Assembly (NCBI GenBank): GCA_965222605.1
Contig: OZ244960.1
Span: forward strand, 3,488,001 to 3,552,000
From: Candidatus Latescibacterota bacterium
Lineage (GTDB): Bacteria > Latescibacterota > UBA2968
Length of the DNA stretch: 64,000 nt
Reading direction: 5' to 3'
Part shown: positions 2,758 to 33,797 of the stretch, piece by piece
How the letters are laid out: each line of letters begins with the position of its first letter
Numbering within the stretch: the first letter of the stretch is position 1
Position numbers and translations under genes: made by a program
The notes under the pieces: generated by a model
Databases searched by the model: none
What the model was told of the DNA's origin: nothing
The model's input: the letters and a program-made list of their open reading frames with translations, nothing else

Positions 2758-5205
2758 TCACTTTTCAGGTGTTGCACCATAGACAAACATAACCTCGCGG
2801 GTGTCCTTCTGTTTGCCGACTTCGTCCGTTATGGTCACTTGCAAAATATTTACACCCGGTTTGGCTTTTTGCAAATTTAGTTCTACGTATTCTTTTTCCA
2901 CGGGATTGGAGCCGACTTGATCGTAAGCGATAGATACTTCCGGTCTTTTTCTTTGCAAGAGTGCGCGAAGTCCCGATGAGATCGCGCTGGCGACTCCTGA
3001 GGAGAATTGGGAACTGAACTTAATCTGGTATTGCACTTTGTAGCGCGTCTGGCCGAATTTGTTGCGTTTCAGATTGTAGATTTCGAAATAGGCGAATACC
3101 TGTCTGCCGCTTCCGTAAGTTCTGGATGGATGGGGGATCACCCACACATCGTCTTTCCGAAGGCGGTCGTTTTTGCCCTCTTTTTTTATAGCGAGGGCAA
3201 GCTGGATGCCGCTCACTTTAAGTTGGCCGGAACTGTAGTCGTGAATATCCACATCTTGTTTGTAAACTCCTATGCGCCCAGAGATCACATCTTTCAACTG
3301 CACTTGAAGTTGGTATTTGCCGGGGGGAACTTCCAGTTTGAGCAGATCCGGCACAAATGCCCCTTTTCGCTCATCAAACCCGTCGCTTTTTTGATAGGTG
3401 AATACATCCGCTGTGCGATAAATGTGGGTATGTTCCTCGTCTGCAAGAGCCAATGTTCCCTGTACATGGATCAGGTGATCTTTCTGCGTCTGAGAGATTT
3501 TCACCTCTGCGGGGGGCACGCCGTAATAGACTTCGAGTTGGGTCTGGCCGTTCTCGCCGCGAAAGTCCGCGAGATCGTAGTAAAAGCCCAGCGCGTCTGC
3601 ACGGATGTCTGGGCGATAAAAGTCGGGCGTTTTTGCAACTGCCTTCTGGTAAATCACGCCGGGTGTGTAGCGAATTAGTTGCACTGCCTTCTTGAGCTTG
3701 TCGTCTCCAGCGGCCCTCGGCGGCAAGGGAGCGAAATCAAAATCGCCGCGTCCCACCTCATCTGTAAACGTAAATTCCACGCCGTTCTGGAGTTTTGTAT
3801 AGGTCCAGGTTTCCCATGGTACGGATTCCTGCGGACCATCCACAGTGACGGGCGCGTAGCTGTCGAATGCCATTTTTGGTATCGGATTTCCAGAACGATC
3901 TGTAATGCCCTGATCCCGCCGAGGTGTCGCGCCGGGCGTGGCGTCGATGGGATCCAGAGAATCCAGTTCGATGTCTTCCTCATTTGAGTCGCTGGTTCCC
4001 AGCCTGGCGATATCTCCGCGGTTCACCTCGGGCGGACTGTCCGTTGTGCTAAACGGGTCGCGCCGGGTGCGAATGGGAAAGACGGGGCCGATGAAGGTCA
4101 AATACGCAGCCTGTGGTCCGTATAGATCTACGGCCATTTGCGTTCGCACGGCCTCCACTTCCGGGCTTATGATAAATTCGCGGTTGTCGGAACGGGAGCG
4201 GTAATCCGGTTCGCCAAAGCGAATATACACTTCGCCCCGCCGGTCCCAGGGATACACCTTCGTAGAGAAGAAGGTTCGGGCGAACCAGACGCGGCGATAA
4301 TGCTCGATAATGCGCTCGTTGATCGCGGTTAGAATATCGGGATCTCTACGCCTCCAGAACTGGTGTAGATAGGCGAGTCGTTCCGCTTCTTTTTCGAGCG
4401 CGGCATAAGCATGCCGTTCCTTTTCCGAAGCCACGAGGGAGATATCCGTGTAATGCGCCCTTTCCGTTTCGTCCAGTTTGAGAAGGTATCGCTCGAACAA
4501 GGCCAGAGCACGTTCGTATTTCTCCAGATAAAAGAACCCTTGAGCCACTTGTGAAATTAATCTCGTTTCCCCTGGATCTCGCGCCAGATAGGGCGCGAGA
4601 TACTGTTCAATGAGATCAAATCGTTTGGCCTGGATGCACGCAAGCCCGAAGTAATAAAGTCCATCTGGATTGTCTGGCTCCTTTTCAACGTATTGCAGGT
4701 AGTACACGATCGCCTTTTCGTGATCGTCTCGGAATCGCTCATAGATTTCACCCAAAAGGCGATATGCCGGTGAGTATGTGGAATCAATTTTAGTCGCGCG
4801 TTTGGCCTCGCCCAAGGCTTTGCGGAAGTTTTGCAGCGCGCCCATTCCCCTGGCGGGACGTTCGGCATAGGTCAACCCAACACCGACGTAGGCTTCGGGG
4901 AGATCCGGGTTGAGTTCTTTGGCCTTTTCATAGGCGGCCTCAGCGGCGTCGTAATCGGCATTGGATAGATGTGCATAGCCCAATCGGGTTCTCAAATAGG
5001 CGTCTTTGGGATAGGATTGCGTGAGTCTCGTGAAGATCTCGATAGCGAGATCGAGTTCTCGGTTCAAAATTTTCTCCTCACCGAGGGCCACGAGCGAATC
5101 TCGCTCGGCGTCTGTGAGCGACACGGGTGGATTAGTCCCTTCAGATGGGGAAGCAAGGAACACAATACCAATGATTGCAAAGAGACGCAGATTTTGGAGT
5201 CTCAT
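2758..5205 (-). CDS. Secreted TPR + GWxTD-domain protein with C-terminal Ig-like domains
   Basis: Signal peptide and TPRs, then FWRRRDPD..T..NE...EHYRRVWFA...PWDRRGEVYIRFGEPD. ATG 5205 has an AGGTGAT SD; GTG 5247, overlapping the upstream stop, is an alternative start. Confidence 0.85.
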   Translation of the reverse strand: MRLQNLRLFAIIGIVFLASPSEGTNPPVSLTDAERDSLVALGEEKILNRELDLAIEIFTRLTQSYPKDAYLRTRLGYAHLSNADYDAAEAAYEKAKELNPDLPEAYVGVGLTYAERPARGMGALQNFRKALGEAKRATKIDSTYSPAYRLLGEIYERFRDDHEKAIVYYLQYVEKEPDNPDGLYYFGLACIQAKRFDLIEQYLAPYLARDPGETRLISQVAQGFFYLEKYERALALFERYLLKLDETERAHYTDISLVASEKERHAYAALEKEAERLAYLHQFWRRRDPDILTAINERIIEHYRRVWFARTFFSTKVYPWDRRGEVYIRFGEPDYRSRSDNREFIISPEVEAVRTQMAVDLYGPQAAYLTFIGPVFPIRTRRDPFSTTDSPPEVNRGDIARLGTSDSNEEDIELDSLDPIDATPGATPRRDQGITDRSGNPIPKMAFDSYAPVTVDGPQESVPWETWTYTKLQNGVEFTFTDEVGRGDFDFAPLPPRAAGDDKLKKAVQLIRYTPGVIYQKAVAKTPDFYRPDIRADALGFYYDLADFRGENGQTQLEVYYGVPPAEVKISQTQKDHLIHVQGTLALADEEHTHIYRTADVFTYQKSDGFDERKGAFVPDLLKLEVPPGKYQLQVQLKDVISGRIGVYKQDVDIHDYSSGQLKVSGIQLALAIKKEGKNDRLRKDDVWVIPHPSRTYGSGRQVFAYFEIYNLKRNKFGQTRYKVQYQIKFSSQFSSGVASAISSGLRALLQRKRPEVSIAYDQVGSNPVEKEYVELNLQKAKPGVNILQVTITDEVGKQKDTREVMFVYGATPEK

Positions 5206-19071: not shown

Positions 19072-22000
19072 ATGCGTATCGCGACGGTATTTTTGAGTTT
19101 GATAGTCGCTGTTTTTGAAATACACGCCAGCGAGACGGACCTCCCGCCGCGCGGAGAAGGATCCATAGCTTTTGAGATCGATGTGTGCAGTTTTCGATAT
19201 CGGGGCCGCGAGGGATTCGAAGAAGTAACCCTGCGCTTTCCCGTCGCGCAGTTTGCATTTTTGAGACAAGATTCGGGGATTTATCTCGCGCGGTACAAGC
19301 CTTCGCTGCGGGTCTTAAACGATGCCGGAGAGATTGTGCAACAGGTGGAGGCGGGAAGCAGGCTGACAGCCGAATCGCTGGAAGCCACCGTCGATACAGA
19401 CCGCATGGTATATGACATGGTGCAGGTGCGCCTGCCCGCAGGTCGCTATCGCGGAGAACTGACCTTGAGTGACTTGCAGGCCGACCGGGCGGGATTGGCG
19501 GTATTTTCTCTCGATGTACCCACTTATGATCCCGGAAAAATAGGCATGAGCGATCTGTATTTGTCCTCTGGATTCAATCCACAGGGGGCAGGAGAGAGCC
19601 TTGAGATGTTTCGAAAAGATGGGCGATTGATACTGCCCAACCCTGCGCGGCAATATCGGCGGGGGAATCCGCTCTACCTGTATTTTGAGGTGTATTATCT
19701 GGGCTATCAGAGTCATCGGGTTGCAATGCAGATAGAAGACCGATACGGACATCGCCTTTGGCGTGACCAGCGGTCATTTCCGGGCTATCGGGGTGAAGTC
19801 AAATTTGCCGAGGGTATTCCCACCCATGAACTGCTGCCGGGGACATACACGTTGCGGGTTCAAGTGGCAGCCGGGCGGGATACACTCGTATCGGCTCGAA
19901 AATTTGAGGTGATGGGTGAGACGCTTGTTCCGGCTTCGGGTTTTGATGATCGGCGAGCAAAAACAGCGCAGCATTTATTAAAATGGTTTGGTGGATCCGA
20001 GGTTGAAGCCACTTATACTGGCTTGGGACGCGCAGACCGTGCGGCATTTCTCTACGGGTTCTGGATGGACCGCAATCCGATTGTGGCGCGGTCGTATTAC
20101 AATCCGCTGCTCGGTTTCGGTGCGCCTCCTGACTTAGATGGGGCGATGATCACAGCCCTGGGCAGGCGCAAAGAAATGGCAAGGCATATCGATCCGCGCT
20201 ATGCGGCCCGACAGGTGTTGCCGGATACAGTACAGGCAAGAGATGCGCTGAAGGTGCTCAACGCGCTTCTCGAGGAAGATGGAAACGATTTGATGGGACG
20301 AGCCGCGCAGGGATATGCCTATTTGTTTGCGAGCAATTTACCCTATGCGGAACAGACGTTTAACTCGGCGTTGAACGCAGGTGGGGTATTGCCCGAAGTG
20401 TACAACGGTGTGGGGATATCCCATATCGGACGCAGGCGGTGGGACGAGGCCGTGGCGGCTTATGATCAGGTTTTGGTTCTTCGCCCCAATTGGAAGACCG
20501 CGCAGGTCAACCGCGCGCTTGCCCGTTTGTTGGGGGGCAAACAGCGGGCAGAAGACGCCTTGAAGGAGGCGATTGAAGCCTATCCGCATCACCCGGAGTT
20601 GCTGTATTTGCTCGGGCGGGTGTTTGAACGCGAGGGCAAGGTCGAATCTGCCGAGAAAGCCTATACCCGACAGACTGTGGTAAATCCGATGCACGCGCGG
20701 GCGCGATTCGATCTGGGGCGGGTATGGTTGAAACGAGGACAACGCGCAAGGGCGACGCGCGTGTGGCGCGAGTTGATGGATACGCGCCCCGAACTGCGTG
20801 CGGAATGTCTTCCCTTGCTCCTAAGTGTGTATCAGCGGATGGGTGAAACAGGAGAGGCGCAAAAGGTAATGGCCGAGTATTTGCGTACGGTAGATGGCGA
20901 TATGCACGGCCTTCTGCAAGATATTCGATTATTGGCGACGGTGAAAGAGGTTGCCGCTTATGAAGCATTGCCGCCCGAGCAGCAGCCGATTTTTGTGCGG
21001 ATGTTCTGGCAGCGCCGCGATCCCACGCCGGCCACGCCGGGCAATGAGCGTCTGGTGGAGCACTATCGGCGAGTATTATATGCAATGCAACATTTTTCCA
21101 CTGGGCAAAAGCCGTGGGACAAACGCGGAGAGATTTATATTCGCTATGGAGAACCGGCACACAAGAGCCGCGCAGGCGATGTGCGCTATGAGATGGATCC
21201 GGATGTGGTGCGGGTTAAGGAGCGATTGTGGATGAGCTTGACTCCCGAGGCGCATAAAGAGATTATTGCGCGGATGGGCAGGCTGCGGACATCGACGCGG
21301 GATGTGCAATATCAAGGCGAAGATGCCGGGGATTTGATTGTTTCAGATTTTGAGTCTATTGATTACGAATTAAATCCCAATCGCACGTTTTTTGGGGGTG
21401 GTGCTGATCGCAATGATGGAAAATATTATGACGATGTTCAGGATTCGCACCGCGATCGCGATGCGGGTATGACGAATATTCGGGGTTTTCCCATCTTTCC
21501 CATTGATGGCGGGACGCGCTGGGAATATTGGATTTATCCCGATGTGGCAGGTGGTATTGAGGTCGTTTTTTCGGCGTTGGATTCTCGCGGTGCATTCGAT
21601 TTCCCCGATATGCCGCAGGGTCGCGTGCTGTCAACTTTTAATCAGAGCCAATGGACAGCAAAAAGACCCGATCGGGTGATGGCGCGGGCGGTGCGGCAAC
21701 AATCTGAAATTTATCGGCCCGTAACAGATGATTTAGCGTTTCACTTCGATGCGATAGATTTTCGCGGGGAGAGTCCGCGCAGCCGGTTAGAGGTCTATTA
21801 CGGTGTGCCTTTAGTTGCTCTGATTGATTCGGAGCGAATAGAAGGTCAAGTTGAACGGGGTATTGCTCTGTTTGACAGTACGTGGACACCGGTTTTTCGG
21901 AAGGTCGCCGGGTTGCCTTTTGCCGTGTCAGATGATACTGAGGTGGGTAGTGGAACACTATTGATTGATGAATTGGCACTTAATGTGCCGCCGGGCAAAT

Positions 22001-22536
22001 ATTATTTGGGCGTGGAAGTGCATGATCGCGCTCGCAATTTGATGGGCGCTTATACGCGCGAGGTGGAGGTGGAGCCATATAAGGGCGGTGAGTTGGGATT
22101 GAGCGATATAGAGATGGCCGGATCGGTAGTGGAGGATGTTGCGGTGAAGGTCAAAGGAGGGCATAAGGTCGTGCCTATGCCATCCAAAACCTATGTGCCG
22201 GGACAACCCGTGACGATTTATTACGAGGTCTATGGGTTGACATTTGACGAATTAGGTCAGACGCGATACCAGATGGATTACAAAATTTCACCTCGAAAAG
22301 GCAAACCTCTGGTCGTGACGATTTTGCGTGCGGTCGGAAAATTGTTGGGCATTGAAGAGAAGAAAGTGGTGACAATTTCTTACGAGCAGGTGGGTACGCG
22401 GGAAACAGAGTACAATTATCTGGAGATTGATGTGAGTGGGTCAGAGGCGGGGCACTATGAGATGGAGGTGACGGTAACGGATTTGAATACGGGTATGAAG
22501 GTAAGCAAAGAGGTGATATTTTTTATTGCTCCTTGA
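19072..22536 (+). CDS. Secreted TPR + GWxTD-domain protein (1154 aa)
   Basis: Signal peptide, N-terminal Ig-like domains, TPRs, FWQRRDPTPATPGNERLVEHYRR...PWDKRGEIYIRYGEP. Confidence 0.9.
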   Translation: MRIATVFLSLIVAVFEIHASETDLPPRGEGSIAFEIDVCSFRYRGREGFEEVTLRFPVAQFAFLRQDSGIYLARYKPSLRVLNDAGEIVQQVEAGSRLTAESLEATVDTDRMVYDMVQVRLPAGRYRGELTLSDLQADRAGLAVFSLDVPTYDPGKIGMSDLYLSSGFNPQGAGESLEMFRKDGRLILPNPARQYRRGNPLYLYFEVYYLGYQSHRVAMQIEDRYGHRLWRDQRSFPGYRGEVKFAEGIPTHELLPGTYTLRVQVAAGRDTLVSARKFEVMGETLVPASGFDDRRAKTAQHLLKWFGGSEVEATYTGLGRADRAAFLYGFWMDRNPIVARSYYNPLLGFGAPPDLDGAMITALGRRKEMARHIDPRYAARQVLPDTVQARDALKVLNALLEEDGNDLMGRAAQGYAYLFASNLPYAEQTFNSALNAGGVLPEVYNGVGISHIGRRRWDEAVAAYDQVLVLRPNWKTAQVNRALARLLGGKQRAEDALKEAIEAYPHHPELLYLLGRVFEREGKVESAEKAYTRQTVVNPMHARARFDLGRVWLKRGQRARATRVWRELMDTRPELRAECLPLLLSVYQRMGETGEAQKVMAEYLRTVDGDMHGLLQDIRLLATVKEVAAYEALPPEQQPIFVRMFWQRRDPTPATPGNERLVEHYRRVLYAMQHFSTGQKPWDKRGEIYIRYGEPAHKSRAGDVRYEMDPDVVRVKERLWMSLTPEAHKEIIARMGRLRTSTRDVQYQGEDAGDLIVSDFESIDYELNPNRTFFGGGADRNDGKYYDDVQDSHRDRDAGMTNIRGFPIFPIDGGTRWEYWIYPDVAGGIEVVFSALDSRGAFDFPDMPQGRVLSTFNQSQWTAKRPDRVMARAVRQQSEIYRPVTDDLAFHFDAIDFRGESPRSRLEVYYGVPLVALIDSERIEGQVERGIALFDSTWTPVFRKVAGLPFAVSDDTEVGSGTLLIDELALNVPPGKYYLGVEVHDRARNLMGAYTREVEVEPYKGGELGLSDIEMAGSVVEDVAVKVKGGHKVVPMPSKTYVPGQPVTIYYEVYGLTFDELGQTRYQMDYKISPRKGKPLVVTILRAVGKLLGIEEKKVVTISYEQVGTRETEYNYLEIDVSGSEAGHYEMEVTVTDLNTGMKVSKEVIFFIAP

Positions 22537-22599: not shown

Positions 22600-22641
22600 A
22601 AAAAAAAAATAAGCCCCGCAATACGGGGCTTATTTTTTTTT
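22600..22641. terminator. Bidirectional intrinsic terminator between convergent genes
   Basis: A-run-TAAGCCCCG-caata-CGGGGCTTA-T-run; it contains the recombinase stop codon. Confidence 0.85.
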
Positions 22642-23619
22642 ACATCCATATCGCAACCGTGCTACAGCACCAGTGCCAGCGAGTTGAGCGCGTGCATAAT
22701 GGGCAGGCATAGATGTGTCGCGCCATCGCCCCGCTATTTGCATCTCGACGATCGATGCACCCGCTGTTGCAAGGGACTGCGCCGATCCAATACGGAGCGA
22801 GTGCCCTGAGAACCGTCCAGAGATTCCTGTAGCGGCGGTACGCTGTTTTACGATGTTCCTGATTGCGCGGGTTGTCAGTCGCCCAGTTCCCAGATGATCG
22901 CCACGGCGCACGCGGCGAAAGAGGGGGCCATCGTCAATTTGGGCGGCGTTCAGCCAAGCCGTCACTGCCGTTGCTGTTGTCGGTCCAATGTACAGGATGC
23001 TGCTGCGCCCTTCCTGGTCGGTTTTAGACCATCGCACGGTAATGCGGGCACTGCCGTCCTTGACGTGTAAAAAATCTTCGACATCGAGGGCAACGCATTC
23101 AGACACGCGCAGGAGTGCGTCAGACATGACGGCGATGATGGCCGCATCCCGAAGGCCAGCGAGGGTGTGATCACTTTGAGCGACGCGTACCACTCTGTCC
23201 GCGTCATGCCAGCGCAGGCCATCCATTTGCCCCCGTCCGCGGTCTCGTCCCTGGCGTCGTATGCCTGCTAATACACGCTGGGTGGCTGGACCAATGGGAT
23301 CAGCATGGCCCTGGTGTTTCACGCGAAACCGGATTGCGCCCACGATTTGTGTACAGGTAGCTGGGCTGGTTCCTACTTCATACCGCACCGTCAGATATTC
23401 GGCGATGAGTGTATCGCTTTCCGCTCGGTCGTTGCGAAATGTATCCCAGGCATAAAGCGCAGACCGATAAGCTCTAATGGTAGCAGGAGCGAGTGATGCA
23501 CGCGCGAGTTCGGCCGCGGGCATTGAGAGTGTCTGAGCGGTGTGACCTGCCTGCATAGAACATCTGCAGGTGGGCAGGTGCATGGACTGGGATGTGGATG
23601 TTTTAATCATTGTGGCCAT
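22630..23619 (-). CDS. Cre-like tyrosine recombinase (start codon uncertain)
   Basis: LRDAAII...LLRVSE (catalytic R), SKTDQ (K), SGHSLRIG (HxxR), AGRW (W as in Cre), MPAHY (Y). Confidence 0.9.
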   Translation of the reverse strand: MATMIKTSTSQSMHLPTCRCSMQAGHTAQTLSMPAAELARASLAPATIRAYRSALYAWDTFRNDRAESDTLIAEYLTVRYEVGTSPATCTQIVGAIRFRVKHQGHADPIGPATQRVLAGIRRQGRDRGRGQMDGLRWHDADRVVRVAQSDHTLAGLRDAAIIAVMSDALLRVSECVALDVEDFLHVKDGSARITVRWSKTDQEGRSSILYIGPTTATAVTAWLNAAQIDDGPLFRRVRRGDHLGTGRLTTRAIRNIVKQRTAATGISGRFSGHSLRIGSAQSLATAGASIVEMQIAGRWRDTSMPAHYARAQLAGTGAVARLRYGCKKK

Positions 23620-23734
23620 TTTTTTCGGTATTGTGCAAATCAGTGGAGCAGGTGGTTTTTATTAGACGCTTACGCTATCCGATTTAGATTCATCAATTAG
23701 ACACGCGATAGCCTTTTTTTAGACTTGTGACCTG

Positions 23735-23768
23735 TTTATTTCCGATAATCCAACTTATCGGAAATAAA
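23735..23768. other. 34-bp lox-like recombination site (13-8-13)
   Basis: TTTATTTCCGATA-ATCCAACT-TATCGGAAATAAA: perfect 13-bp arms and an asymmetric spacer, about 115 bp upstream of the recombinase ORF. Confidence 0.85.
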
Positions 23769-23976
23769 GGGCAATGAAGTGTTGCGGCTCTATTTGGTAT
23801 TTGACCAGATGAAATAGCCGAAATGCCAAATATCGCAGGATATTGTTGTTTGTACCCTGGCTTCTTTTTTTATCTCGGCAATTTTTTTTAAAATTTTAAT
23901 AGATTAAAATTTAAATTGTTTAAAAATAATATGTTATGAGCGAAATTTACATATCGCATATTTTGGTCTATAACAC

Positions 23977-24005
23977 TTGACAGACTTTGAGGCACATATT
24001 AAATT
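23977..24005 (+). promoter_or_regulatory. sigma70-type promoter of TBDR operon 3
   Basis: TTGACA-N17-TAAATT. Confidence 0.7.
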
Positions 24006-24033
24006 GGTCAATCGTTGGATTATCGGAAATTAT
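24000..24033. other. Second, inverted, partially degenerate lox-like site overlapping the -10/+1 region
   Basis: taaattggtcaat-CGTTGGAT-TATCGGAAATTAT; 24014-24030 is the exact reverse complement of 23738-23754. Confidence 0.65.
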
Positions 24034-24267
24034 AGTTAATAATGAAGAAACCGACATCATAGATCGAAAGGAGGTGGCGCATTTAAGCCTGTTTTTGCAA
24101 TCAGAGGGAGGGAATTAAGAAGGAGGTGATGTTTAAGGGCTTATCGATATTGTTTTTTAGTTGGTAGTTTCTCCTTATCAGATGGAGAAATTAGCTTGTG
24201 GGAATGAGCCAGGTGAGCCTTTCCCGTATCTTTCCCAAAGCCGGGGAAGAAACCAAAGGAGGAGTTT

Positions 24268-27200
24268 ATGTACCGTTTGAGAGCTGGGTTTATAGCCTTG
24301 CTTGCCATTGCTCTGGGGTTTGGGCTGGCGTATCAGGCCGATGCACAGACCACCACGGGTAAAATTGCGGGTCGCATCACAGATGCTGGTGGCGACCCTC
24401 TGCCCGGGGCTAACGTAGTTCTTGTAGGCACCAGAATGGGAGCCACAGCAGATGTCAATGGCGATTACTTTATTATTCAGGTTTCGCCAGGCGTGTACGA
24501 AGTTCAGGCATCGCTTGTGGGATATCACACGGTGAGCAAGACGGATGTGGTGGTGAGTATTGACCGCACATCCCCTGTGAATTTTTCCCTGACAGAATCG
24601 ACCGTTGAATTGAGTGAGATCACGGTTGTGGCTGAGCGTCCGCCGGTTGAGTTGGAAGTTTCTTATGCTCAGACGATTATGAAGGCAAGTGAAGTTCGCG
24701 AAGCACCCACAGGTCCCCGCCTGCGCGACGCGTTTGCCACGCAGGTAGGTGTGGATAGCGATGACTGGGGTTTGACCATTCGCGGCGCAAGTGAAGAAGA
24801 GATGTTGTATACAATGGACGGTGTGGGTATGAAAGACAACCGCAATAACCGTCCGTATTCTTCTTTTAGCAAAACAAATCTGGCAGAAGTTCAGATTTTG
24901 ACAGGTGGCTTTAGTGCTGAATATGGCGATGCGCGCAGTGGCGTTGTCAATATTGTGACCCGTGAGCCTCGTCAGTTTACGATCAGTGCAGATGCGCGTT
25001 ATAATCCCGCTGGTCGCAAGCACTTTGGTCCCGACGTATATAGCTCGGACAATTGGTGGGATATTGGTCGTTTTGAGAGCGATGGCGCTACAGCAGATCG
25101 CAATGGCGATGGTGTGCCTGACTTTAAGGGTTGGACGCAGGAGTTCAGTGATCGCGGCGGTCCGGCAGGCGAATGGACTGCGGGTATTTACGATCTCCCG
25201 ATAACGACTGTTGCTCAAGCCAAAGGGATATGGGCATGGCAGCATCGCAACTTTGAATTAGAAGGGAATAATGGCTTTAATGCCAATGCTGCTGATCGCG
25301 AATCCGATTATCACTACGATGTGACGGTTGGCACACCGGTGATCAGCGATAAATTGTCGGTGATGTTGACCAATCAGCGCGAGCGTACGGCTTATACTTA
25401 CGACTTGTCCAAAACGTCGTATCGCGACAACCTGGCGCAGGCCAAACTGACGTTTACACCAACTGCCACAACAAAACTATCGCTGGGTTATTTGCGTGGT
25501 TGGGCAGATGGTACAAAAACAGGCGACTTTACGGGAACCTTTGTCAGATCGCAGGTGGAAGCCTCACGCCGTTTTGATGATGTTCAGATGTTTGCGCCGG
25601 GGTCTCAAGCCAATCAAGAGACCATTGACCGCAATTATTATACTCTGAATTGGTCGCACACATTGTCACCTAAGACATTTTACAATATCACTGCGCGTTA
25701 TGGCAGAACGGATTGGGAAGCCACATGGCAGAAACCTCAAGCCGTGGGTATTCCCGCGGCAGCGGTTTATCCCGATGGTCGGGTTGAAGAGATTACCGAA
25801 TCCGGCGTTGCATCTGCGCAATCAGCAGGTGCTGTGATTCTGGATGAAGCGCCTGTGGGTTGGAACTATGCCAACCGCCGCGTCGATATTCTGGGTATTT
25901 ACCGTTTGCGCGGTGGCGGTGGTGCCAGCCGTTCAGCGGACTGGTCTTATATCAAAGAGACGGATCTGACTTTTGATATTACCAGCCAAATGACACCGCA
26001 TCATCAGGTCAAAGCCGGTATTCAAGCGCATACGTTTTTCCTGCGTGAATATCGCGGTTATACCTCCACACTGCCAGACCGCCCCGAAGGTTGGGAAAAC
26101 GACAATCCGGCAGATATCGTGGCGACGCAAACAGCCAACTTGCACAATTATTGGGTGAAGACGCCGTGGTATGGTGGTTTCTTCGTGCAAGATCGTATGG
26201 AGTATCGCCAGATCGTAGTCAATGCGGGGCTGAGACTGGATTTTCACCGTCCGGACAAGTGGTTTGATCTGGTAGGACAGCCGCATGCAGAATACCTGGG
26301 ATCGAATGCCGAATTGTTATACGAAAATCGACGCTCGGTTCGCGCGCCGACCAAGTGGGCGTGGAGTCCGCGTTTTGGCGTATCTCACCCAACAACGGCG
26401 ACTTCCAAGCTCTTTTTTAACTACGGTCACTTCTATCAGGTGCCGACGACAGTAGAACTCTACCGTGCGCAGTCCGGTGCGGGTGAGCCATTGGAGAACT
26501 TTGGCAACACATGGGTAGAAATGCCTCAGACCATCGCTTATGAGCTTGGTTTTGAGAAGAGTTTTGAAGGCAAGTATCTGGCTTCGGGCACGGTGTATTT
26601 TAAGGACATCGACAAAGAACTCGAACCGAGTACGAGTTATTATCCCGAAAACAGTACTGGCAGGCGCACGCGGTGGACAACCCAGGGACGGATCAAGGAT
26701 GTGCGCGGTTATGAGCTTGCGTTTAAGAAATCGCGCGGTCAGTTCTTGACGGGTTTTATTTCTTATGATTACCGCCAGGAGCGCAGCAAGCGGATTGGGT
26801 GGGACCGCATCTATGACCAGAATACGGTTTCCACGCCTTCCCGCCTGATTATTGAAGGTAGTGCCAATGCCGCTAATCCACAATTTAAGCCGCGTCCAAT
26901 CTGGAAGTTGGGTTTGAACTTCCGAACGCCGCTGGATTACGGCGCCGAACAGCGCATGTTGAAGGGCGGTTGGGAAGCCAATTTGTTCTTCCGCCGAGAA
27001 GGCGGTTGGTGGATGAATCACAATCCGACTAATGATTCTGCGCTGCAGAATGTGTTGAATGTGCAGTGGACAGATAGCAACATGACAGATCTGCGGATTT
27101 CAAAAGCCTTTGATACCAGGGGCGCGCCGCTGTTGTATTTGGAGATTCACAATATTTTCAATTTCAAGAACTTCAACAATCTGCGCGACTACGATGGCGA

Positions 27201-27411
27201 GGTCTGGGACTATCCAGGCACAAATGACGATGCCAAAGCCGACGCGTATATGGAGCGGCTCGGGTGGACTGTTGATGCCAGCGGCAAACTTCAGGAAGGT
27301 AGCCGTCCGGGTTCCGATGTCGATCTGGACAATTTCCCGGAAACGCGCCGTCCTTATATCGTCTATCTGGACCGTCGAGACATCACGTTTGGTTTGCGAT
27401 TCTCGTTCTGA
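24268..27411 (+). CDS. TonB-dependent receptor
   Basis: Signal peptide, TGGFSAEYGDARSGVVN plug, FVQDRMEY, C-terminal RDITFGLRFSF. Confidence 0.95.
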   Translation: MYRLRAGFIALLAIALGFGLAYQADAQTTTGKIAGRITDAGGDPLPGANVVLVGTRMGATADVNGDYFIIQVSPGVYEVQASLVGYHTVSKTDVVVSIDRTSPVNFSLTESTVELSEITVVAERPPVELEVSYAQTIMKASEVREAPTGPRLRDAFATQVGVDSDDWGLTIRGASEEEMLYTMDGVGMKDNRNNRPYSSFSKTNLAEVQILTGGFSAEYGDARSGVVNIVTREPRQFTISADARYNPAGRKHFGPDVYSSDNWWDIGRFESDGATADRNGDGVPDFKGWTQEFSDRGGPAGEWTAGIYDLPITTVAQAKGIWAWQHRNFELEGNNGFNANAADRESDYHYDVTVGTPVISDKLSVMLTNQRERTAYTYDLSKTSYRDNLAQAKLTFTPTATTKLSLGYLRGWADGTKTGDFTGTFVRSQVEASRRFDDVQMFAPGSQANQETIDRNYYTLNWSHTLSPKTFYNITARYGRTDWEATWQKPQAVGIPAAAVYPDGRVEEITESGVASAQSAGAVILDEAPVGWNYANRRVDILGIYRLRGGGGASRSADWSYIKETDLTFDITSQMTPHHQVKAGIQAHTFFLREYRGYTSTLPDRPEGWENDNPADIVATQTANLHNYWVKTPWYGGFFVQDRMEYRQIVVNAGLRLDFHRPDKWFDLVGQPHAEYLGSNAELLYENRRSVRAPTKWAWSPRFGVSHPTTATSKLFFNYGHFYQVPTTVELYRAQSGAGEPLENFGNTWVEMPQTIAYELGFEKSFEGKYLASGTVYFKDIDKELEPSTSYYPENSTGRRTRWTTQGRIKDVRGYELAFKKSRGQFLTGFISYDYRQERSKRIGWDRIYDQNTVSTPSRLIIEGSANAANPQFKPRPIWKLGLNFRTPLDYGAEQRMLKGGWEANLFFRREGGWWMNHNPTNDSALQNVLNVQWTDSNMTDLRISKAFDTRGAPLLYLEIHNIFNFKNFNNLRDYDGEVWDYPGTNDDAKADAYMERLGWTVDASGKLQEGSRPGSDVDLDNFPETRRPYIVYLDRRDITFGLRFSF

Positions 27412-27501: not shown

Positions 27502-29619
27502 ATGAAACGTTTTGTATTTGTGCTGATGGCTATGCTGATGGCTGGCAGTGCTTATGCACAGGGTCACGAGATCGGCACCCTGTGGAGCTCGGGTCGTCTG
27601 ATTTGGCCCGGCGGTCTCGAAACAGGTCTTACCGATCCGGATATCGGTTATCGCGTTGGAAATTCGGGTTTTGCCGTGGTAGGGCTATATTCGAAGTTTA
27701 ATGTGCCCGGTTATTACGAAGGCGGCCAACATCTGGTAAATACCACGCAAAGCCCCTGGTGCAATGACCTGCTGGACGACCTCGCTGATTTTTCGTCTTC
27801 GAAGTTGGGGGGCACAGAGACGCGATTGAACAAGCCCAATCCGAAGTTTTTTCGCATCAATCCACCAACGTTGATTCAGGATGGCAAAGAGATATTGAAT
27901 CCCAATTGGCGTTTGTTCCCCGAAGACGACGATGCCGTGCGGTCGGACCTGGGGGCTGATCTTATGATCAGCAGCACGCTTGTAAACTCCGAAGGCTTGC
28001 GCATTGTGCGCGAGACGTATTCGTGGGCAAACCAGGACGCCGACGATATGATCTTTGAAGTTACGACGATTACGTATCCGGAAAATCCGCATGTGGTTGA
28101 TCTCAGAGCAGGCGAGCGCGGCATTGCTGCAAGCCCGGAAACGGCGCAGAAAAACCCGTCTTATGACAATTTCCACGTTGGGTTGAACTACTATTTGCAG
28201 CGCGGTGGTTCAGGTCCTGCTGGTGGCGCGCATATCACTATTAATCCCGAAGATGGAGGTCGCGCTTACGATGCTGGCTTGCTCGCTGGCGGTATATGGG
28301 ATGAGGTGAATTACTGGGATGATGATGAAAAGCTGCTCTATATCCACGATGGCGACGACAGCGATAAGTTGGGGTATCGCCCCGATGGCGATGACCGCGG
28401 CGAACCTGCGCCCGCTACTGGCGATTTGCTCGATGGGGTGCGCGCTGCCAATATCAGTTCGGGTGAGTTTATGGAATCGCACTACAAAGGGCGCGTGTTT
28501 TTGCACGTGGATAAGACGCCGACAAACGATCCCAATGTGTTGAGTGAGAACTGGCTGGAAGACATGTCTGATCCCGAAAATGCACAGCCGCGTCAGGTGC
28601 GCTGGGTGCCGGGTGAAGTGTGGACGAGCACGCGCACAGCTAATCGCAAGACCGTGCATGATTTTTATGTGCAGCCGGGTACAACACGCGATGAACGGAT
28701 TTCAGATTCCGATCCCGACCAGCCAGGGTATGTGACGACAGAGCAGATCTATCAGTGGCTGACGACATTTGGCCCCTGGGACTTGAAGCTCGGTCAAAGC
28801 ATTCACATTGTATCGGCAGTGATTGTCGCTGGTCCGTCTGAAGCAGAGAACAAGCGCGTGGGTAAGGCATGGGCAGATGGCACAATTGGTTTTGTTCAAA
28901 AAGAAGCTTTCCTCGACAGTGGGTTAGATTCGTTGAAGGCGACTGTGGCAGTTGCGCGTCAAGCCTGGGCAAATCGCACGGGCACGATGCCCCGATTGCC
29001 CGCTGCGCCCAATTGGCCTGCTTCGGTCACGCTGACCTCTGGTCCCGATCGCAACGAGTTGAGTTGGGATGCTGTTTCTGGTGCGGTCAAGTATAATGTG
29101 TATCGCTACGCGGGTCGTCATACAGAAGTGCCCGAACTGATTGGATCACCAACGGGCACCACCTTTAACGATGAGACTTCGATTCGCGGTACGAGATATT
29201 ATTATTCCGTGACAGCCGTTGATGCCAATGGCCTGGAGAGCAGTCGGTTTGCCTCGCGCACCGAAGCAGAGGGTGTGAGTCCCTTCCGCGGTCCTGCCAA
29301 TGACATTACGCAGGTTCGCATTGTGCCCAATCCATATCAGGTGCAGGGCGGGCAACTCGACGATGGGGGTTATAACTATCAGGGTCAGCCCCACAAGCTC
29401 CAGTTTGTGAATCTGCCGGGACAGGCTGTTATCCACATTTTCACCATTACCGGTGATCTCGTGACGCGCCTTGACCACACTTCTGGCTCTGGCGATGAGT
29501 CATGGGATTTGATGACTTCGGATAACAACCAGTTTCTGGTCAGTGGGATCTACTTTGCTCATATTGAAGATACGGCAACTGGTGCCAAGCACATCGAACG
29601 CTTTGTCGTGGTCAGGTAA
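27502..29619 (+). CDS. Secreted protein with FN3 domain and T9SS/FlgD-type C-terminal sorting domain
   Basis: Signal peptide; LSWDAV..YNVYR..YYYSVTAVD FN3; VPNPY...QFVNLP...IFTITGDLV...SGIYFAHI...FVVVR. Confidence 0.85.
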   Translation: MKRFVFVLMAMLMAGSAYAQGHEIGTLWSSGRLIWPGGLETGLTDPDIGYRVGNSGFAVVGLYSKFNVPGYYEGGQHLVNTTQSPWCNDLLDDLADFSSSKLGGTETRLNKPNPKFFRINPPTLIQDGKEILNPNWRLFPEDDDAVRSDLGADLMISSTLVNSEGLRIVRETYSWANQDADDMIFEVTTITYPENPHVVDLRAGERGIAASPETAQKNPSYDNFHVGLNYYLQRGGSGPAGGAHITINPEDGGRAYDAGLLAGGIWDEVNYWDDDEKLLYIHDGDDSDKLGYRPDGDDRGEPAPATGDLLDGVRAANISSGEFMESHYKGRVFLHVDKTPTNDPNVLSENWLEDMSDPENAQPRQVRWVPGEVWTSTRTANRKTVHDFYVQPGTTRDERISDSDPDQPGYVTTEQIYQWLTTFGPWDLKLGQSIHIVSAVIVAGPSEAENKRVGKAWADGTIGFVQKEAFLDSGLDSLKATVAVARQAWANRTGTMPRLPAAPNWPASVTLTSGPDRNELSWDAVSGAVKYNVYRYAGRHTEVPELIGSPTGTTFNDETSIRGTRYYYSVTAVDANGLESSRFASRTEAEGVSPFRGPANDITQVRIVPNPYQVQGGQLDDGGYNYQGQPHKLQFVNLPGQAVIHIFTITGDLVTRLDHTSGSGDESWDLMTSDNNQFLVSGIYFAHIEDTATGAKHIERFVVVR

Positions 29620-30842: not shown

Positions 30843-30920
30843 CATGGCTTGACAGGTATGCGGGTAAGGGGTATTGTATCTGCCTTTGCTTTACGCCGGG
30901 GTTTTTCAGGAGAGGGATGT

Positions 30921-33797
30921 ATGTTGAATACTTTTTTAATCGCGCTTTGCCTCTTTTTGGCGGTTGCGTCTGCTTATGGCGCAACGGTATTGCTCGAGGA
31001 TGGTACGGTGTTAAAGGGCGAGATTGTGTCGGAATCTGAGTCCGAGGTGGTGATCAAGACGCCGATGGGCGAACTCCGGGTAGAAAAGGCGCTGATAAAA
31101 ATGATAGAGCGGCCTTCGCGCAATATTACTGTGTTGCTCGAGGATGGCACGGTGTTGAAGGGTGAGATGGTATTGGAATCAGAGTCAGAGGTGGTGCTTA
31201 AGACTTTGATCGGCGAGCTTCGGGTAGAGCGGGTACACATCAAAATTTTAGAGCGAGAAAGAGAAGTGGAGGAGGGAGAGGCGGGTCAGCAGGTCGAGGC
31301 AGAATTGCAGGCGAGTTTCGGCGAGTTTGAAGATCAGGTGGCGGGTTTGATTTTGGCGGAGGTAGCCAGTGCGGATACGGCCGCTTTTTACAAGGCATTG
31401 GACCGGAAGGCGAAGGGTCTGTTTTTGGCGCGGTTCTGGCAGGGGCGCAATCTGCTGGTGCTGAAGTATTATTACGGTTACCACTTTGGGCGTCGTTATG
31501 TGACGGTGTCAGATGCGTATTTTGAGCGGGGAGATTTGATTCCGAAGAAGTATATCACGCGGGCGCAGGCTCCAGATGAGAAGCTGGTGACGGAGGCTGC
31601 CCGTATTTGTGACCGGATGCTGATTTTACATCCGAATGATGTGGTGGCGATGTGCGCGCTGGGCTATCTGCGACTGGAGCAAGACGATGTGAAGGAGGCA
31701 GAAAAACTGTTCTTAAAGGCGATTAAGAAGCAGAAGAAGTTTGTGGAGGCGCGCAATGGGCGGGCGCTGGCGGCATTGAAGATGCCGGGCCAGAAGTCGC
31801 GGGCACTGAGGTTGTTCCGCGAGGCCTGTGCGATGGATAAAGCATATCCGGCGGCACACTACAATCTGGGGATGTGCCATCTGGCGATGGTGGGGATGGA
31901 TCGGGTGGATCTGGATTATTATTTTGGGAATGTGGTAGAGCTTTTTCCGGATCACTATGACGCATATTTCAAGCTGGGCGTATTTTACGAGTCGCTGCGC
32001 TATTACGACAAGGCGATGAAAGCGTATTCGCGGCAGATGGCGGTGAACCCCGGTCATCCCATTACGCCTGCGCGTCTGGCTTATGTGGCGATGCGGTTGA
32101 AGAGCGCGGGGAAGGAGACCTATAGTCTGGACGACTTGGAGGCGATGGCAAAGACAAAGCCGAAAGAGTATTTGCCGCTTTTGGCCGAGATGTATATTGA
32201 GCGGGGGGATTTTGTCCAGGCGCAGGCGGCTTTTGAACGTTATTTTCAGTTTTTGGATCCGACAGAACGAGGGTATTATCAGGATCTGTCTCTGGTGGCT
32301 CCTGCCGAGGTGCTTTCCAAAATTCAGGGAGCTTTTGGTCGGTCGCTAATACGGCTTCGAGATGTTTTCTGGCTGGAGCAGGATCCCACGCCAACGACAC
32401 AGGTGAACGAGCGCCGCGTTGAGCATTATCGGCGGGTGCATTTCGCGCGCTCAAATTTTGCCGAGGGCCTGGAAGAGTGGCACGGTCGGGGGTGGGACCG
32501 GCGGGGCGATGTGTATATTCGGCTGGGGCATCCGGATCATCGGAGTTGGTCGGATTATCTGGTGTTTGAGACGGATGAGAAAGTCGCAAAGGTGAAGAAT
32601 CGGCTGAATATGATGGCCGCAAACGCCCTGGAAGAAGTGATGCCGAGCAAGCATGTGCATGGGCAGTCGAGCGCGTCGTATGGATATGGGGCCGGTCCCG
32701 AGACGGCTGAGTTGCGGGGTGTGCCGACTTTCCCGATACCGCGCAGGCGCAGTGTGATGCTTGATGGGTCTGAGCTGGGGTATAAGTGGGAGTCGTGGAT
32801 TTATGCCGAGGTCGGCGGGGGGATTGAGATTACGTTTCTGGATCCTACGGGTAGCGGTTTTTTCGATTTCGCGCCTATTCCACCCAATTCGCCCAATCAC
32901 GCGCTGTGGTCTCGGATGGCCCCCGAGACGGTTGTGGCGCGGGTTGTGTCCCATACGCCTTCGATTTATATGTATGATTACGGTGGTGAACCTCTGGACT
33001 TTTATATGTACACGGCAAATTTCCGCGCATCGGAGCGAGAGACGGCTATGGAGACGTATATGGGGGTGCCGATGGCCGCTTTGACGCCGTCGGGAAATTC
33101 ATATCTGATGCTGGATCGAGAGGTCGTGGTCTATGACCGGTCGCTGAAACCGGTTTTTCGGGATAGTGTGCGGGTGGCTGAAGCTATAAGTGGGCAGGCG
33201 GAGAAGGGGACACTAATGGTGGATCAGGCGCGTGCGGCACTGTCTCCTGGGCAGTATTTATTGGCGGCTCAGGTGCGCGATCCGATAAGTCGAAAAATTC
33301 AGGTGCATAAGACGTATGTCGCGGTTTCATCTTTCCGCGGTGAGGCGTTGGCTCTGAGCGATCTGGAATTGGCGGGGCAGATTGTTGAGGTGGGAGAGCA
33401 GGTAGGGAAGTTCCAAAAGGGGGATTTGCGGGTGGTGCCTCTGCCGTCTAAGATATTTGCGAGGGCGCAACCGGTTTATCTCTATTACGAGATTTATAAT
33501 TTGAGCCGAGATGCGTTTGGGCAAACCCGCTACCGCGTGGAATACAGGCTTAAGGGGATACAGGGCACGGGTCTGATTCGGGGATTGGGACGGCTGTTGA
33601 GCCAAACGCCACGGGCCGATGGGGTGCAGATTTCTTATGAGCATACGGGAACCGCGACCTCAGAGCCGCTTTATATTGCGCTGGATGTGCCCGAGGATAG
33701 CAAGGAGCAATTGGAAATTGAGGTGGTGGTGACGGATTTGAACAAACCGAATACGCCCAGCGTGAGCAAGCAGGCGCGGTTTGTGCTGGGTGATTGA
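30921..33797 (+). CDS. Secreted TPR + GWxTD-domain protein with two N-terminal VLLEDG repeats
   Basis: Duplicated TVLLEDGTVLKGE..ESESEVV.KT..GELRVE module; FWLEQDPTPTTQVNERRVEHYRR...GWDRRGDVYIRLGHPD. Start set at ATG 30921. Confidence 0.85.
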   Translation: MLNTFLIALCLFLAVASAYGATVLLEDGTVLKGEIVSESESEVVIKTPMGELRVEKALIKMIERPSRNITVLLEDGTVLKGEMVLESESEVVLKTLIGELRVERVHIKILEREREVEEGEAGQQVEAELQASFGEFEDQVAGLILAEVASADTAAFYKALDRKAKGLFLARFWQGRNLLVLKYYYGYHFGRRYVTVSDAYFERGDLIPKKYITRAQAPDEKLVTEAARICDRMLILHPNDVVAMCALGYLRLEQDDVKEAEKLFLKAIKKQKKFVEARNGRALAALKMPGQKSRALRLFREACAMDKAYPAAHYNLGMCHLAMVGMDRVDLDYYFGNVVELFPDHYDAYFKLGVFYESLRYYDKAMKAYSRQMAVNPGHPITPARLAYVAMRLKSAGKETYSLDDLEAMAKTKPKEYLPLLAEMYIERGDFVQAQAAFERYFQFLDPTERGYYQDLSLVAPAEVLSKIQGAFGRSLIRLRDVFWLEQDPTPTTQVNERRVEHYRRVHFARSNFAEGLEEWHGRGWDRRGDVYIRLGHPDHRSWSDYLVFETDEKVAKVKNRLNMMAANALEEVMPSKHVHGQSSASYGYGAGPETAELRGVPTFPIPRRRSVMLDGSELGYKWESWIYAEVGGGIEITFLDPTGSGFFDFAPIPPNSPNHALWSRMAPETVVARVVSHTPSIYMYDYGGEPLDFYMYTANFRASERETAMETYMGVPMAALTPSGNSYLMLDREVVVYDRSLKPVFRDSVRVAEAISGQAEKGTLMVDQARAALSPGQYLLAAQVRDPISRKIQVHKTYVAVSSFRGEALALSDLELAGQIVEVGEQVGKFQKGDLRVVPLPSKIFARAQPVYLYYEIYNLSRDAFGQTRYRVEYRLKGIQGTGLIRGLGRLLSQTPRADGVQISYEHTGTATSEPLYIALDVPEDSKEQLEIEVVVTDLNKPNTPSVSKQARFVLGD

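Follow-up and report, generated by a model that had tools for sequence, protein, structure and literature searches.

In the window (the whole 64,000-nucleotide stretch of Candidatus Latescibacterota DNA that was analysed), a gene for a Cre-type tyrosine recombinase lies divergent from a TonB-dependent receptor operon, and the 648-bp intergenic region holds two lox-like sites with a predicted promoter between them (Table 1). The receptor gene is followed by genes for a protein of no recognised family and a PorV/PorQ family outer-membrane protein, and a gene for a TPR and GWxTD-domain protein probably closes the operon. A first-pass annotation of this DNA had labelled the second and third products CTD and PorV. 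The PorV label agrees with the NF033709 score; the 705-aa protein gave no Pfam match and only a weak NCBIfam match (E 0.0013), with nothing in either library pointing to a T9SS C-terminal domain, and the CTD label was not retained.

Table 1. Features of the recombinase-receptor locus, in window coordinates.
Feature	Position	Strand	Basis or remark
GC-rich hairpin AAGCCCCG-CAATA-CGGGGCTT, A and T runs on flanks	22611..22642	.	Direct reading; gap between convergent TPR gene and recombinase gene
Cre-type tyrosine recombinase gene, 329 aa	22630..23619	-	Pfam Phage_integrase, E 5.5e-16
Conserved block from site 1 to recombinase start; repeated TTAGAC-like words, GCTATC...GATAGC inverted repeat	23655..23720	.	
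Site 1, perfect 13-8-13 lox-like palindrome	23735..23768	.	Read from sequence
Putative inverting segment, 259 nt, including promoter	23755..24013	.	Interval between the 17-nt arms; collinear in all orthologous loci
Highly conserved block beside inner arm of site 1; inverted repeat TATTTGGTATTT/AAATGCCAAATA	23769..23835	.	Alignment
Predicted sigma-70-type promoter TTGACA-N17-TAAATT, now facing receptor operon	23977..24005	+	Consensus score 10/12
Site 2, inverted half-site	24000..24033	.	Read from sequence
Conserved 5' leader of operon, repeated AAGGAGGTG words	24034..24267	+	Alignments
TonB-dependent receptor, 1047 aa; CarboxypepD_reg, Plug and beta-barrel domains	24268..27411	+	
705-aa protein, no recognised family	27502..29619	+	
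PorV/PorQ family outer-membrane protein, 360 aa	29678..30760	+	NF033709, 147.6 bits, cut-off 90
TPR and GWxTD-domain protein, 982 aa	30849..33797	+	

All 17 PDB matches of the recombinase at E<=0.01 were Cre or its derivative Tre (top E 2.3e-17), with no Xer or integrase chain among them, and the NCBIfam XerC, XerD and XerA models scored well under cut-off (54 vs 335 bits). By these comparisons, the protein appears nearer to Cre than to Xer, lambda-Int or other tyrosine recombinases. Overall identity to Cre was low in the alignment, in which R171, K199, H273, R276, W299 and Y308 matched R173, K201, H289, R292, W315 and Y324 of Cre, bearing out the initial description of a Cre-type R-K-HxxR-W-Y enzyme. 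The catalytic motifs were kept in all five orthologues; the residues around K199 read WSKTD in the window and vary in the others, with the lysine itself retained. With dN/dS values of 0.12-0.28 over five orthologues, the gene is under purifying selection.

Site 1 (TTTATTTCCGATA-ATCCAACT-TATCGGAAATAAA) sits 116 bp upstream of the recombinase start codon. Site 2 (TAAATTGGTCAAT-CGTTGGAT-TATCGGAAATTAT) consists of a degenerate inner arm, the spacer CGTTGGAT and a good outer arm, TATCGGAAATTAT; the inner arm overlaps the -10 of the promoter, agrees with the arm consensus at about 5/13 positions and, apart from the -10, is unconserved. The reverse complement of site 2 agrees with site 1 at 11/13 positions of the outer arm and 7/8 of the spacer, and 17 nt form an exact inverted repeat (23738-23754 vs 24014-24030) with 259 nt separating the arms. 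The perfect palindrome at site 1 and the 11/13, 7/8 and 17-nt figures for its inverted copy had been given in the first-pass annotation and were reproduced here. At up to two mismatches, the 17-mer was found in two places only in the window, both of them the sites (0.04 expected), and none of 100 shuffles yielded two matches; the longest spaced inverted repeat was 17 nt, compared with 12 nt in 200 shuffles of the intergenic region. In the whole 6.34-Mb genome the 16-nt core has two perfect matches only, both at the locus. A third stretch that comes close to the core (L003, 1 mismatch) falls within coding sequence, has no recombinase gene in its vicinity and was set aside as a chance occurrence.

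The -10 hexamer of the promoter between the sites is identical with the first six bases of the site 2 inner arm, and the sequence confirmed the proposal that the -10 doubles as a degenerate arm. The promoter is a predicted one, matching the sigma-70 consensus, which is not validated for this phylum, and its transcription start is likewise predicted. In 16 of 16 aligned rows the -35 TTGACA was unchanged and the -10 region TTAAATT was retained, one row (G014) having a single change just upstream. A protein bound to the good arm of site 2, just downstream of the -10, would stand in the way of RNA polymerase. The position of that arm, and the presence of one good arm only at site 2, would suit a locus with no or rare flipping, where the recombinase is mainly a DNA-binding regulator: binding at site 1 would control its own gene, and binding at the outer arm of site 2 (about +1 to +20) would repress the operon, perhaps via a loop that joins the two sites.

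The two-site design enclosing the promoter is kept in five genomes of the same genus, four of them G020, G012, G011 and G018 and the fifth the remnant genome G023, and site 1 was found in the orthologous loci L008, L009, L011 and L036. Six genomes have canonical sites, and in each of them spacer positions 1-7 are the same in site 1 and site 2 and position 8 is not. Among genomes the 7-mer varies, with three alleles (ATCCAAC, AATCCAC and AATCAAC). Identity within genomes together with variation between them is the pattern predicted if crossover regions must be identical. The spacer of the window is unlike those of its relatives at three positions, with the same change in both sites, which suggests that the pair was homogenised after the lineages split. 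G027, whose recombinase has diverged (70-79% identical), has a derived sequence common to both sites (ATTTCTTTTTATTCAA vs TTGTATAAAAAGAAAT, complementary at 15/16 positions). From these alignments, site 1 and site 2 appear to evolve as a pair, and the comparative data lend strong indirect support to the view that the two recombine with each other. Binding alone needs no identical spacers, yet positions 1-7 covary in 6/6 genomes; this, and the retention of all catalytic residues under purifying selection, argue against a recombinase that mainly regulates by binding.

The outer arm of site 2 was perfect in the five canonical-recombinase genomes and in the remnant genome (6/6) and in just four of nine examined genomes without recombinase, a distribution suggesting that the arm decays after recombinase loss. 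Because the arm is still perfect in four recombinase-free genomes, its conservation could partly reflect a role in the 5' end of the transcript.

The flipped allele, for which related genomes had been proposed as a place to look, was found in none of the seven genomes with a recombinase or remnant (the window, G011, G012, G018, G020, G023 and G027) and in none of the nine examined genomes without recombinase, in all of which the promoter points towards the receptor operon. Logan contigs of four sequencing runs spanned both sites in the reference orientation and contained no inverted junction; in the run search, two runs matched fractions of 0.98 and 0.97 of the words sampled, and other runs matched less. 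Since contigs drop rare variants, these data neither show nor exclude flipping. In a related strain, X21, the site 1 spacer carries C>T at 23750, and the contigs do not cover site 2 there. Of the ON/OFF switch originally proposed, the anatomy, the Cre/lox-type reading and the paired sites stand; two orientations were not seen here in the 7+9 genomes or the contigs of the four runs, and with no second orientation seen at the locus we infer the switch and its feedback rather than observe them. The single orientation of all copies seen would also be expected of a binding regulator.

Recombinase genes have been lost repeatedly. There are at least two distinct deletion scars (G023 and G025), the gene is wholly absent in G022, the genome with the closest receptor gene, and in others, and receptor-gene trees have recombinase-bearing and recombinase-free genomes in both major groups. 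Such repeated loss implies that the switch is dispensable. Losses that leave the promoter towards the operon, the mixed trees and the absence of a flipped allele from the genomes and contigs searched would fit an ancestral switch of the genus that is now frozen ON here, the recombinase being kept for another task or being lost. In the window, on the other side, the sites are intact with spacers identical at 7/8 positions, the recombinase gene is undamaged and has a dN/dS far under 1, and the spacer pair was apparently homogenised after the lineage split; we regard a frozen relic as unlikely. The scar in G023, with a breakpoint in the site 1 spacer, was considered as a footprint of aberrant recombination and rejected: its other end is blurred, with about 20 unmatched bases.

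Homologues with recombinases 52-54% identical were found in other uncultured bacteria (loci L012-L027), where the same design stands ahead of divergent giant adhesin (surface-protein) genes. Two MAGs supplied 11 copies, and in all 11 a pair of inverted lox-like sites is spaced about 179 nt apart; the central hexamers of each pair are reverse complements, with seven different hexamers overall. A TTGACA-N17 promoter lies between the sites, touching an inner arm; it is directed towards the recombinase in 11 of 12 adhesin-locus copies and the opposite way in the remaining one. Between L013 and L015, two loci of one genome, the flanks are collinear (88.7% and 94.7% identity) and the interior is reversed (94.2%, minus strand), with breakpoints within the sites. 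This comparison of sequences establishes inversion in the adhesin-locus family. That homologues of the same design display both orientations is a further point against binding-only regulation at the present locus, to which we assign a low probability.

The genome's own paralogue (47% identity) adjoins a cadherin/fn3 surface-protein gene, and there a perfect inverted repeat of 15 nt encloses a TTGACA-N17-TATAGT promoter; both repeat arms covary with those of the G026 orthologue. Homologues in Poribacteria and Binatia (L016, L019, L023, L026 and L028-L030) have weak or dissimilar inverted repeats only.

The arm core TTTCCGATA...TATCGGAAA is palindromic at 10 Cre-like homologues from other phyla (26-42% identity), at most about 1.2 kb from the gene at eight of them and further off at two. 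On the Shewanella ANA-3 plasmid, the source of SCre/SloxP, there is one CCGATAA-N6-TTATCGG palindrome, with arms ending TCCGATA. We take this lone palindrome to be SloxP, and on that assumption the likeness to SloxP-type arms noted earlier is upheld. Recurrence of the core at distant homologues and on the SCre source plasmid suggests that it is the binding site of the recombinase family. In literature full text, the arm core was not found alongside 'SloxP'; PMC3082901 gives the site in a figure alone, so the matching palindrome was located on the source plasmid instead. Scans of genome and metagenome contigs for TTTCCGATA-N8-TATCGGAAA turned up neither another orthologue nor a flipped copy; most hits were noise, from repeats of Marinomonas, Okeania and others, and the rest were distant homologues.

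A Cre-like gene beside a single palindrome is a common arrangement. Homologues occur in 369 plasmid records, and when a second inverted site was sought at six distant homologue loci, five gave the palindrome only and one, L211, gave no palindrome either. By analogy, the recombinase and site 1 might form a plasmid-like resolution or integration module for circular DNA, with site 2 an unrelated look-alike in the leader. Given that the 17-nt exact match is beyond chance and that site 2 is conserved and covaries with site 1 in the spacer and, in G027, in the arms, we consider this highly improbable.

Apparently, the locus is a Cre/lox-type invertible promoter (inverton) strongly biased to ON, a reading that we hold to be probable. 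The anatomy of the locus, the conservation of that anatomy and the co-evolution of the sites are all seen in the alignments. We infer continued flipping, the order of its steps, the feedback and the use of a half-site, as follows. A recombinase dimer would bind site 1; at site 2 one monomer would bind the good outer arm, and the fourth would probably be held on the degenerate inner arm via protein-protein contacts. The sites would pair, and strand exchange within the identical part of the spacers would flip the 259-bp segment with its promoter. The observed orientation would be ON, with the promoter driving the genes for the receptor, the 705-aa, the PorV-family and the TPR proteins. In the flipped, OFF orientation its transcripts would cross site 1, enter the recombinase gene and raise recombinase expression, so that return should be faster; cells would nearly always be ON, with a small transient OFF fraction. 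Cre-type enzymes normally require two arms per site, and the single good arm at site 2 therefore counts against the inverton reading. The uniform orientation of the copies examined and the repeated recombinase losses count against it too.

Tyrosine-recombinase promoter inversion is textbook biology for other subfamilies, mainly in gut bacteria and pathogens. In E. coli, fimS is a short promoter segment between inverted repeats that is flipped by the adjacent tyrosine recombinases FimB and FimE, turning a surface structure on or off; recombinase expression depends on orientation, which gives the switch its bias. Its repeats are only 9 bp long, the half-sites beside them are dissimilar, the accessory proteins IHF and Lrp are needed, and the recombinases are not Cre-type. 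The present locus shares with fimS a short segment between inverted repeats, here with a predicted promoter, and the adjacent tyrosine recombinase, and differs from it in having lox-like 13-8-13 sites. In Bacteroides fragilis, according to the portion of PMC4747536 available, the tyrosine recombinases Tsr19/BF2766 and Tsr0667 (SusC/SusD clusters) serve invertible promoters and shufflons; the promoters are documented in both orientations, and a single enzyme can act at distant sites. As far as that portion goes, a local tyrosine recombinase and outer-membrane TonB-dependent receptors (SusC-type) among the targets, in a related superphylum, are common to both cases, as promoter inversion would be, whereas our locus has another recombinase subfamily and other repeats, one local site pair and one orientation seen.

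The SCre/SloxP, VCre/VloxP and YR-series systems are described on phage or plasmid DNA, have one full site and serve resolution or circularisation, and the Cre-type systems tested require identity of the partner-site spacers to recombine (PMC3082901 and PMC10250229, in the parts accessible). Within those parts, the term 'phase variation' has 0 occurrences in PMC10250229 and none in PMC3082901. The present module resembles Cre/loxP of phage P1, SCre/SloxP, VCre/VloxP and the YR series in that its closest solved relatives are Cre and its six catalytic residues align, and in its 13-8-13 palindrome close upstream of the gene and the spacer identity of its partner sites; with SCre/SloxP it also shares the arm core TCCGATA, as in the lone palindrome of the source plasmid. 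Compared with the phage and plasmid systems as described in the accessible text, it is chromosomal, its second site is an inverted half-site, and its sites enclose a predicted host promoter. The adhesin-locus invertons, too, have inverted CCGATAA/TTATCGG sites and a TTGACA-N17 promoter next to an inner arm, beside a surface-protein gene that runs divergently. They have two recognisable arms per site, a segment of about 160 bp, several copies per genome and a promoter mostly towards the recombinase, whereas the present locus is single-copy, with site 2 a half-site, a receptor operon as target and the promoter towards that target. Literature searches at the level of main articles listed no published Cre-type natural promoter invertase and no sponge-symbiont DNA inversion.

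To our knowledge, Cre-type recombinases are known almost only as phage or plasmid resolution enzymes and laboratory tools, and Latescibacterota is a phylum without cultured members. We tentatively suggest, as a possibility that falls short of being likely, that in uncultured bacteria, largely those associated with sponges, Cre-type recombinases act as natural promoter invertases and make up a family that extends across phyla, with a separate crossover sequence for each switch, surface-protein targets and, here, a usable one-armed site. On the same tentative footing, the targets would elsewhere be giant adhesins, several to a genome, of which one is ON and most are OFF; here the target would be a TonB-dependent receptor/PorV operon. 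The missing arm of the one-armed site might be replaced by the -10 of the promoter, in a self-resetting switch that is nearly always ON. If the switch works, phase variation would extend to Latescibacterota, and an outer-membrane complex for nutrient uptake or linked to secretion would be switched on and off within a host-associated community, which might be a hedge against receptor-using phages or grazers. Cre-type enzymes would then have a natural regulatory role, and genome engineering would gain ready-made orthogonal recombinase/site pairs whose spacers vary naturally, along with a half-site that works. The lineages that repeatedly lost the recombinase while the promoter stayed ON provide a natural experiment in what such switches cost and what they gain.

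The locus has other conserved elements. The block at 23655-23720, nearly invariant in four of five aligned rows (the window, L008, L009 and L036), conserved in L011 too and missing from the remnant L031, may be the recombinase's own control region. The block at 23769-23835 is possibly an accessory-factor binding site or a leftward promoter. Rfam gave no family in the leader (24034-24267) at E<=1 and none across 23550-24350. A consensus terminator scan made no call, even for the visible hairpin with its T run at 22611-22642. That hairpin is conserved in orthologues, is still present in G025 after recombinase loss and is probably a two-way terminator.

The first-pass annotation had described a perfect arm-spacer-arm (13-8-13) lox-like site, an inverted copy of it, and a promoter whose -10 lies in the degenerate inner arm of that copy. 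Direct reading of the sequence and a repeat scan bore out all three (see the table). Sites 1 and 2 share an exact 17-nt inverted repeat whose arms are separated by 259 nt; the predicted promoter matches the sigma-70 consensus, which may not be that of the host, at 10 of 12 positions, and its -10 takes up the first six positions of the site 2 inner arm. The inverted repeat is not due to chance, because the 17-mer, allowing up to two mismatches, occurred only twice in the window, both times in these sites (0.04 expected), the longest spaced inverted repeat in 200 shuffles of the intergenic region was 12 nt, and no other perfect copy of the site core was found in the 6.34-Mb genome. The conserved leader contains a strong AAGGAGGTG word 5' of a 12-codon ORF (ATGTTTAAGGGC...TAG), which is retained in the recombinase-bearing group and frame-shifted in the other; it may encode a leader peptide or be meaningless.

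Positions of the features discussed (window coordinates unless a contig or locus is named)
Feature	Position	Strand	Remarks
Tyrosine recombinase gene	22630-23619	-	329 aa
Site 1	23735-23768		perfect 13-8-13 palindrome; direct reading
Predicted promoter	23977-24005	+	TTGACA-N17-TAAATT; inside the segment
Site 2	24000-24033		inverted partial copy of site 1; 11/13 outer-arm and 7/8 spacer bases match; direct reading
Word and 12-codon ORF in the conserved leader	24120-24180		
TonB-dependent receptor	24268-27411		
Large TPR protein, preceding cluster	19072-22536		
Large TPR protein, receptor operon	30849-33797		
Inserted ORF in G011	L011 2712-3836		374 aa
Second Cre-like recombinase, window's genome	C1:2737410-2738627 (L006 1171-2403; L299 7730-9031)		47% identity
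Homologues, first MAG	L012, L013, L015, L018, L021, L025		about 3500-4000 in each locus
Homologues, second MAG	L017, L020, L022, L024, L027		about 3500-4000 in each locus

The assignment of the enzyme to the Cre type held as well: all 17 solved relatives found at E<=0.01 were Cre or its derivative Tre, and all six catalytic residues align with those of Cre. By sequence, the enzyme is a Cre-type recombinase and its site is lox-like. The operon 3' of the promoter encodes a TonB-dependent receptor, a 705-aa protein, a PorV/PorQ-family protein and a TPR/GWxTD protein; the label 'CTD' given earlier to the second gene was not confirmed, and its product belongs to no known family. Large TPR proteins close both the preceding gene cluster and the receptor operon. 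A DNA search gave weaker matches to the N-terminal part of the receptor elsewhere in the same genome and in related genomes; this type of operon is therefore repeated in the genome.

We regard the locus as probably a Cre/lox-type invertible promoter for the TonB-dependent receptor/PorV operon, biased to the orientation facing the operon (ON). In the ON state the recombinase gene has no strong promoter facing it; inversion (OFF) would make the strong promoter read into that gene and, presumably by feedback through the recombinase, promote reversal, so the layout predicts a strong ON bias.

The genome that contains the window is a single contig, and its closest named relatives are MAGs of the Latescibacterota; several of the lower-share sequencing runs containing parts of the window are labelled sponge or coral-reef metagenomes. 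At E<=1e-20, the recombinase had a match in 10 of the 31 genomes of the family search, the window's own included. Orthologues of 86-87% identity were present in G011, G012, G018 and G020, a diverged one (70-79%) in G027, and a C-terminal remnant in G023. G020, G012, G011, G018 and G023 are collinear with the window and have the same design: the perfect palindrome adjoins the recombinase, the half-site adjoins the operon, and the promoter lies in between. Spacer positions 1-7 read ATCCAAC at both sites in the window, AATCCAC in G020, G011, G018 and G023, and AATCAAC in G012. They were thus identical between sites 1 and 2 in all six genomes, and position 8, beside the inner arms, differed in all six. 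Cre cuts six bases apart within the 8-bp spacer, and only the inner six positions need to match; the observed pattern fits this rule. Two sites are presumed to recombine only when their spacers match (PMC10250229). That the sites exchange strands is argued chiefly from the matching spacers, for which a protein confined to binding would have no need; use of the sites as operators is, on the same ground, an unlikely explanation. In G027, which has the most diverged recombinase, the arm-plus-spacer sequence is derived, and it is the same at both sites but for one mismatch (ATTTCTTTTTATTCAA vs TTGTATAAAAAGAAAT). This shared change and a 17-nt repeat beyond chance make it scarcely credible that site 2 is an unrelated look-alike. 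In G011, an inserted transposase-like ORF (read from translation only) separates site 1 from the recombinase gene, and CGGAAATAA of the outer arm is apparently present as a 9-bp duplication; given this insertion, the recombinase would be out of direct reach of a flipped promoter.

A flipped allele of the locus was not found in any genome aligned, whether recombinase-bearing, remnant or recombinase-less, nor was an inverted junction found in the contigs of four runs (Logan contigs, which cannot show rare forms). Of the proposed ON/OFF switch, the anatomy, the Cre/lox-type reading and the paired sites stood: three of four inverton characteristics are present (the promoter as a prediction), and the decisive fourth, two orientations, has so far not been seen.

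Nine same-genus genomes (G014, G015, G016, G017, G019, G022, G025, G026 and G028) lack the recombinase by DNA search and alignments, and in every one of them the promoter and the operon are retained, the promoter facing the operon. G025 has a clean deletion that begins in the last codons of the recombinase gene and ends about 25 nt within the segment, the terminator hairpin being retained; the deletion in G023 is a different one, starting in the spacer of site 1 and ending within the recombinase gene. A perfect outer arm at site 2 is shared by the five genomes with a canonical recombinase and G023; of the nine without the enzyme, four have it (G016, G019, G025, G028), and G014, G015, G017, G022 and G026 carry a mutated one. 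Site scoring left out G013, G021, G024 and G030, which match only downstream of the site, and G029, with a weak match to the receptor coding part only. In a receptor-gene tree (first 1500 nt, 15 rows; G022, G027, G024 and G030 left out, the start motif not being found), both deep groups contain genomes with and without the recombinase. The switch is therefore an old feature of the genus that disappeared several times, ON being left each time. Besides the lack of a flipped allele, the dispensable recombinase and the single good arm of site 2 speak against flipping at this locus, which may, with low probability, be a frozen relic; dN/dS values of 0.12-0.28 for pairs of five orthologues indicate that the recombinase is under purifying selection.

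Comparison of the window's receptor with loci L008, L009, L011, L031, L270 and L271 showed 98-99% identity to the receptors of G022 and G025, both without the recombinase, and about 59-61% to those of other recombinase-bearing genomes, whereas the switch region and recombinase are 80-87% alike; DNA homology with the latter group stops near window position 24681. The histories of the switch and of the receptor body are thus different, through allele replacement or fast surface-protein divergence.

Among the functionally closest systems is fimS, which uses another recombinase subfamily and other repeats. The promoter inversions and SusC/SusD shufflons of Bacteroides fragilis are also functionally close and run by tyrosine recombinases, but of other subfamilies and with other repeats (PMC4747536). 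No report of a Cre-type natural promoter invertase was found in literature searches, which included inverton surveys and work on DNA inversion in sponge symbionts, and in the DeepInverton survey (PMC11602134) neither 'Latescibacter' nor 'TonB' occurs in the main text; supplements may list such loci.

The arm core is, judging from matches elsewhere, not limited to this genus. A TTTCCGATA-N8-TATCGGAAA palindrome accompanies a Cre-like homologue (26-42% identity) in ten loci from other phyla and metagenome contigs, at a distance of up to about 1.2 kb in eight and more than 2.7 kb in two. The Shewanella ANA-3 plasmid has exactly one CCGATAA-N6-TTATCGG palindrome, ATCATGTCCGATA-ATTACAGT-TATCGGACACGAG, presumably SloxP. 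This plasmid is the source of the SCre/SloxP pair (PMC3082901).

The paralogue in the window's genome, divergent from a cadherin/fn3/dockerin protein gene, is associated with a perfect inverted repeat of 15 nt that surrounds a TTGACA-N17-TATAGT promoter; at its orthologue in G026, a one-base change is mirrored in both repeat arms. Homology between the two begins exactly at the left repeat, and the cadherin/fn3/dockerin gene is followed by genes for a DDE transposase and a Big_2/LapA-type protein.

Homologues of 52-54% identity occur in six copies in one MAG and five in another. Directly upstream of each of the 11 genes, two lox-like sites lie in inverted orientation at a distance of about 179 nt, and their central hexamers are reverse-complementary in every copy; seven different hexamers were found, some shared by copies of one genome. 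L014, from a third MAG, is a twelfth locus with this arrangement. A TTGACA-N17 promoter lies between the sites, abutting an inner arm, in a segment of roughly 160 bp. The divergent neighbours of L013 and L015, the two checked, encode proteins longer than 1200 aa that contain cadherin-like, Calx-beta and fn3 domains. Between these two loci of one genome, the flanks are collinear (88.7% and 94.7% identity) and the interior is reversed (94.2% on the opposite strand), with the strand change inside the sites. The promoter faces the adhesin gene in L015 and the recombinase in the other 11 of the 12 loci; a segment of such design therefore exists in both orientations. For this family, a promoter directed into the recombinase gene is a normal state, and the multi-copy loci resemble a one-on, rest-off system serving a family of surface-protein genes.
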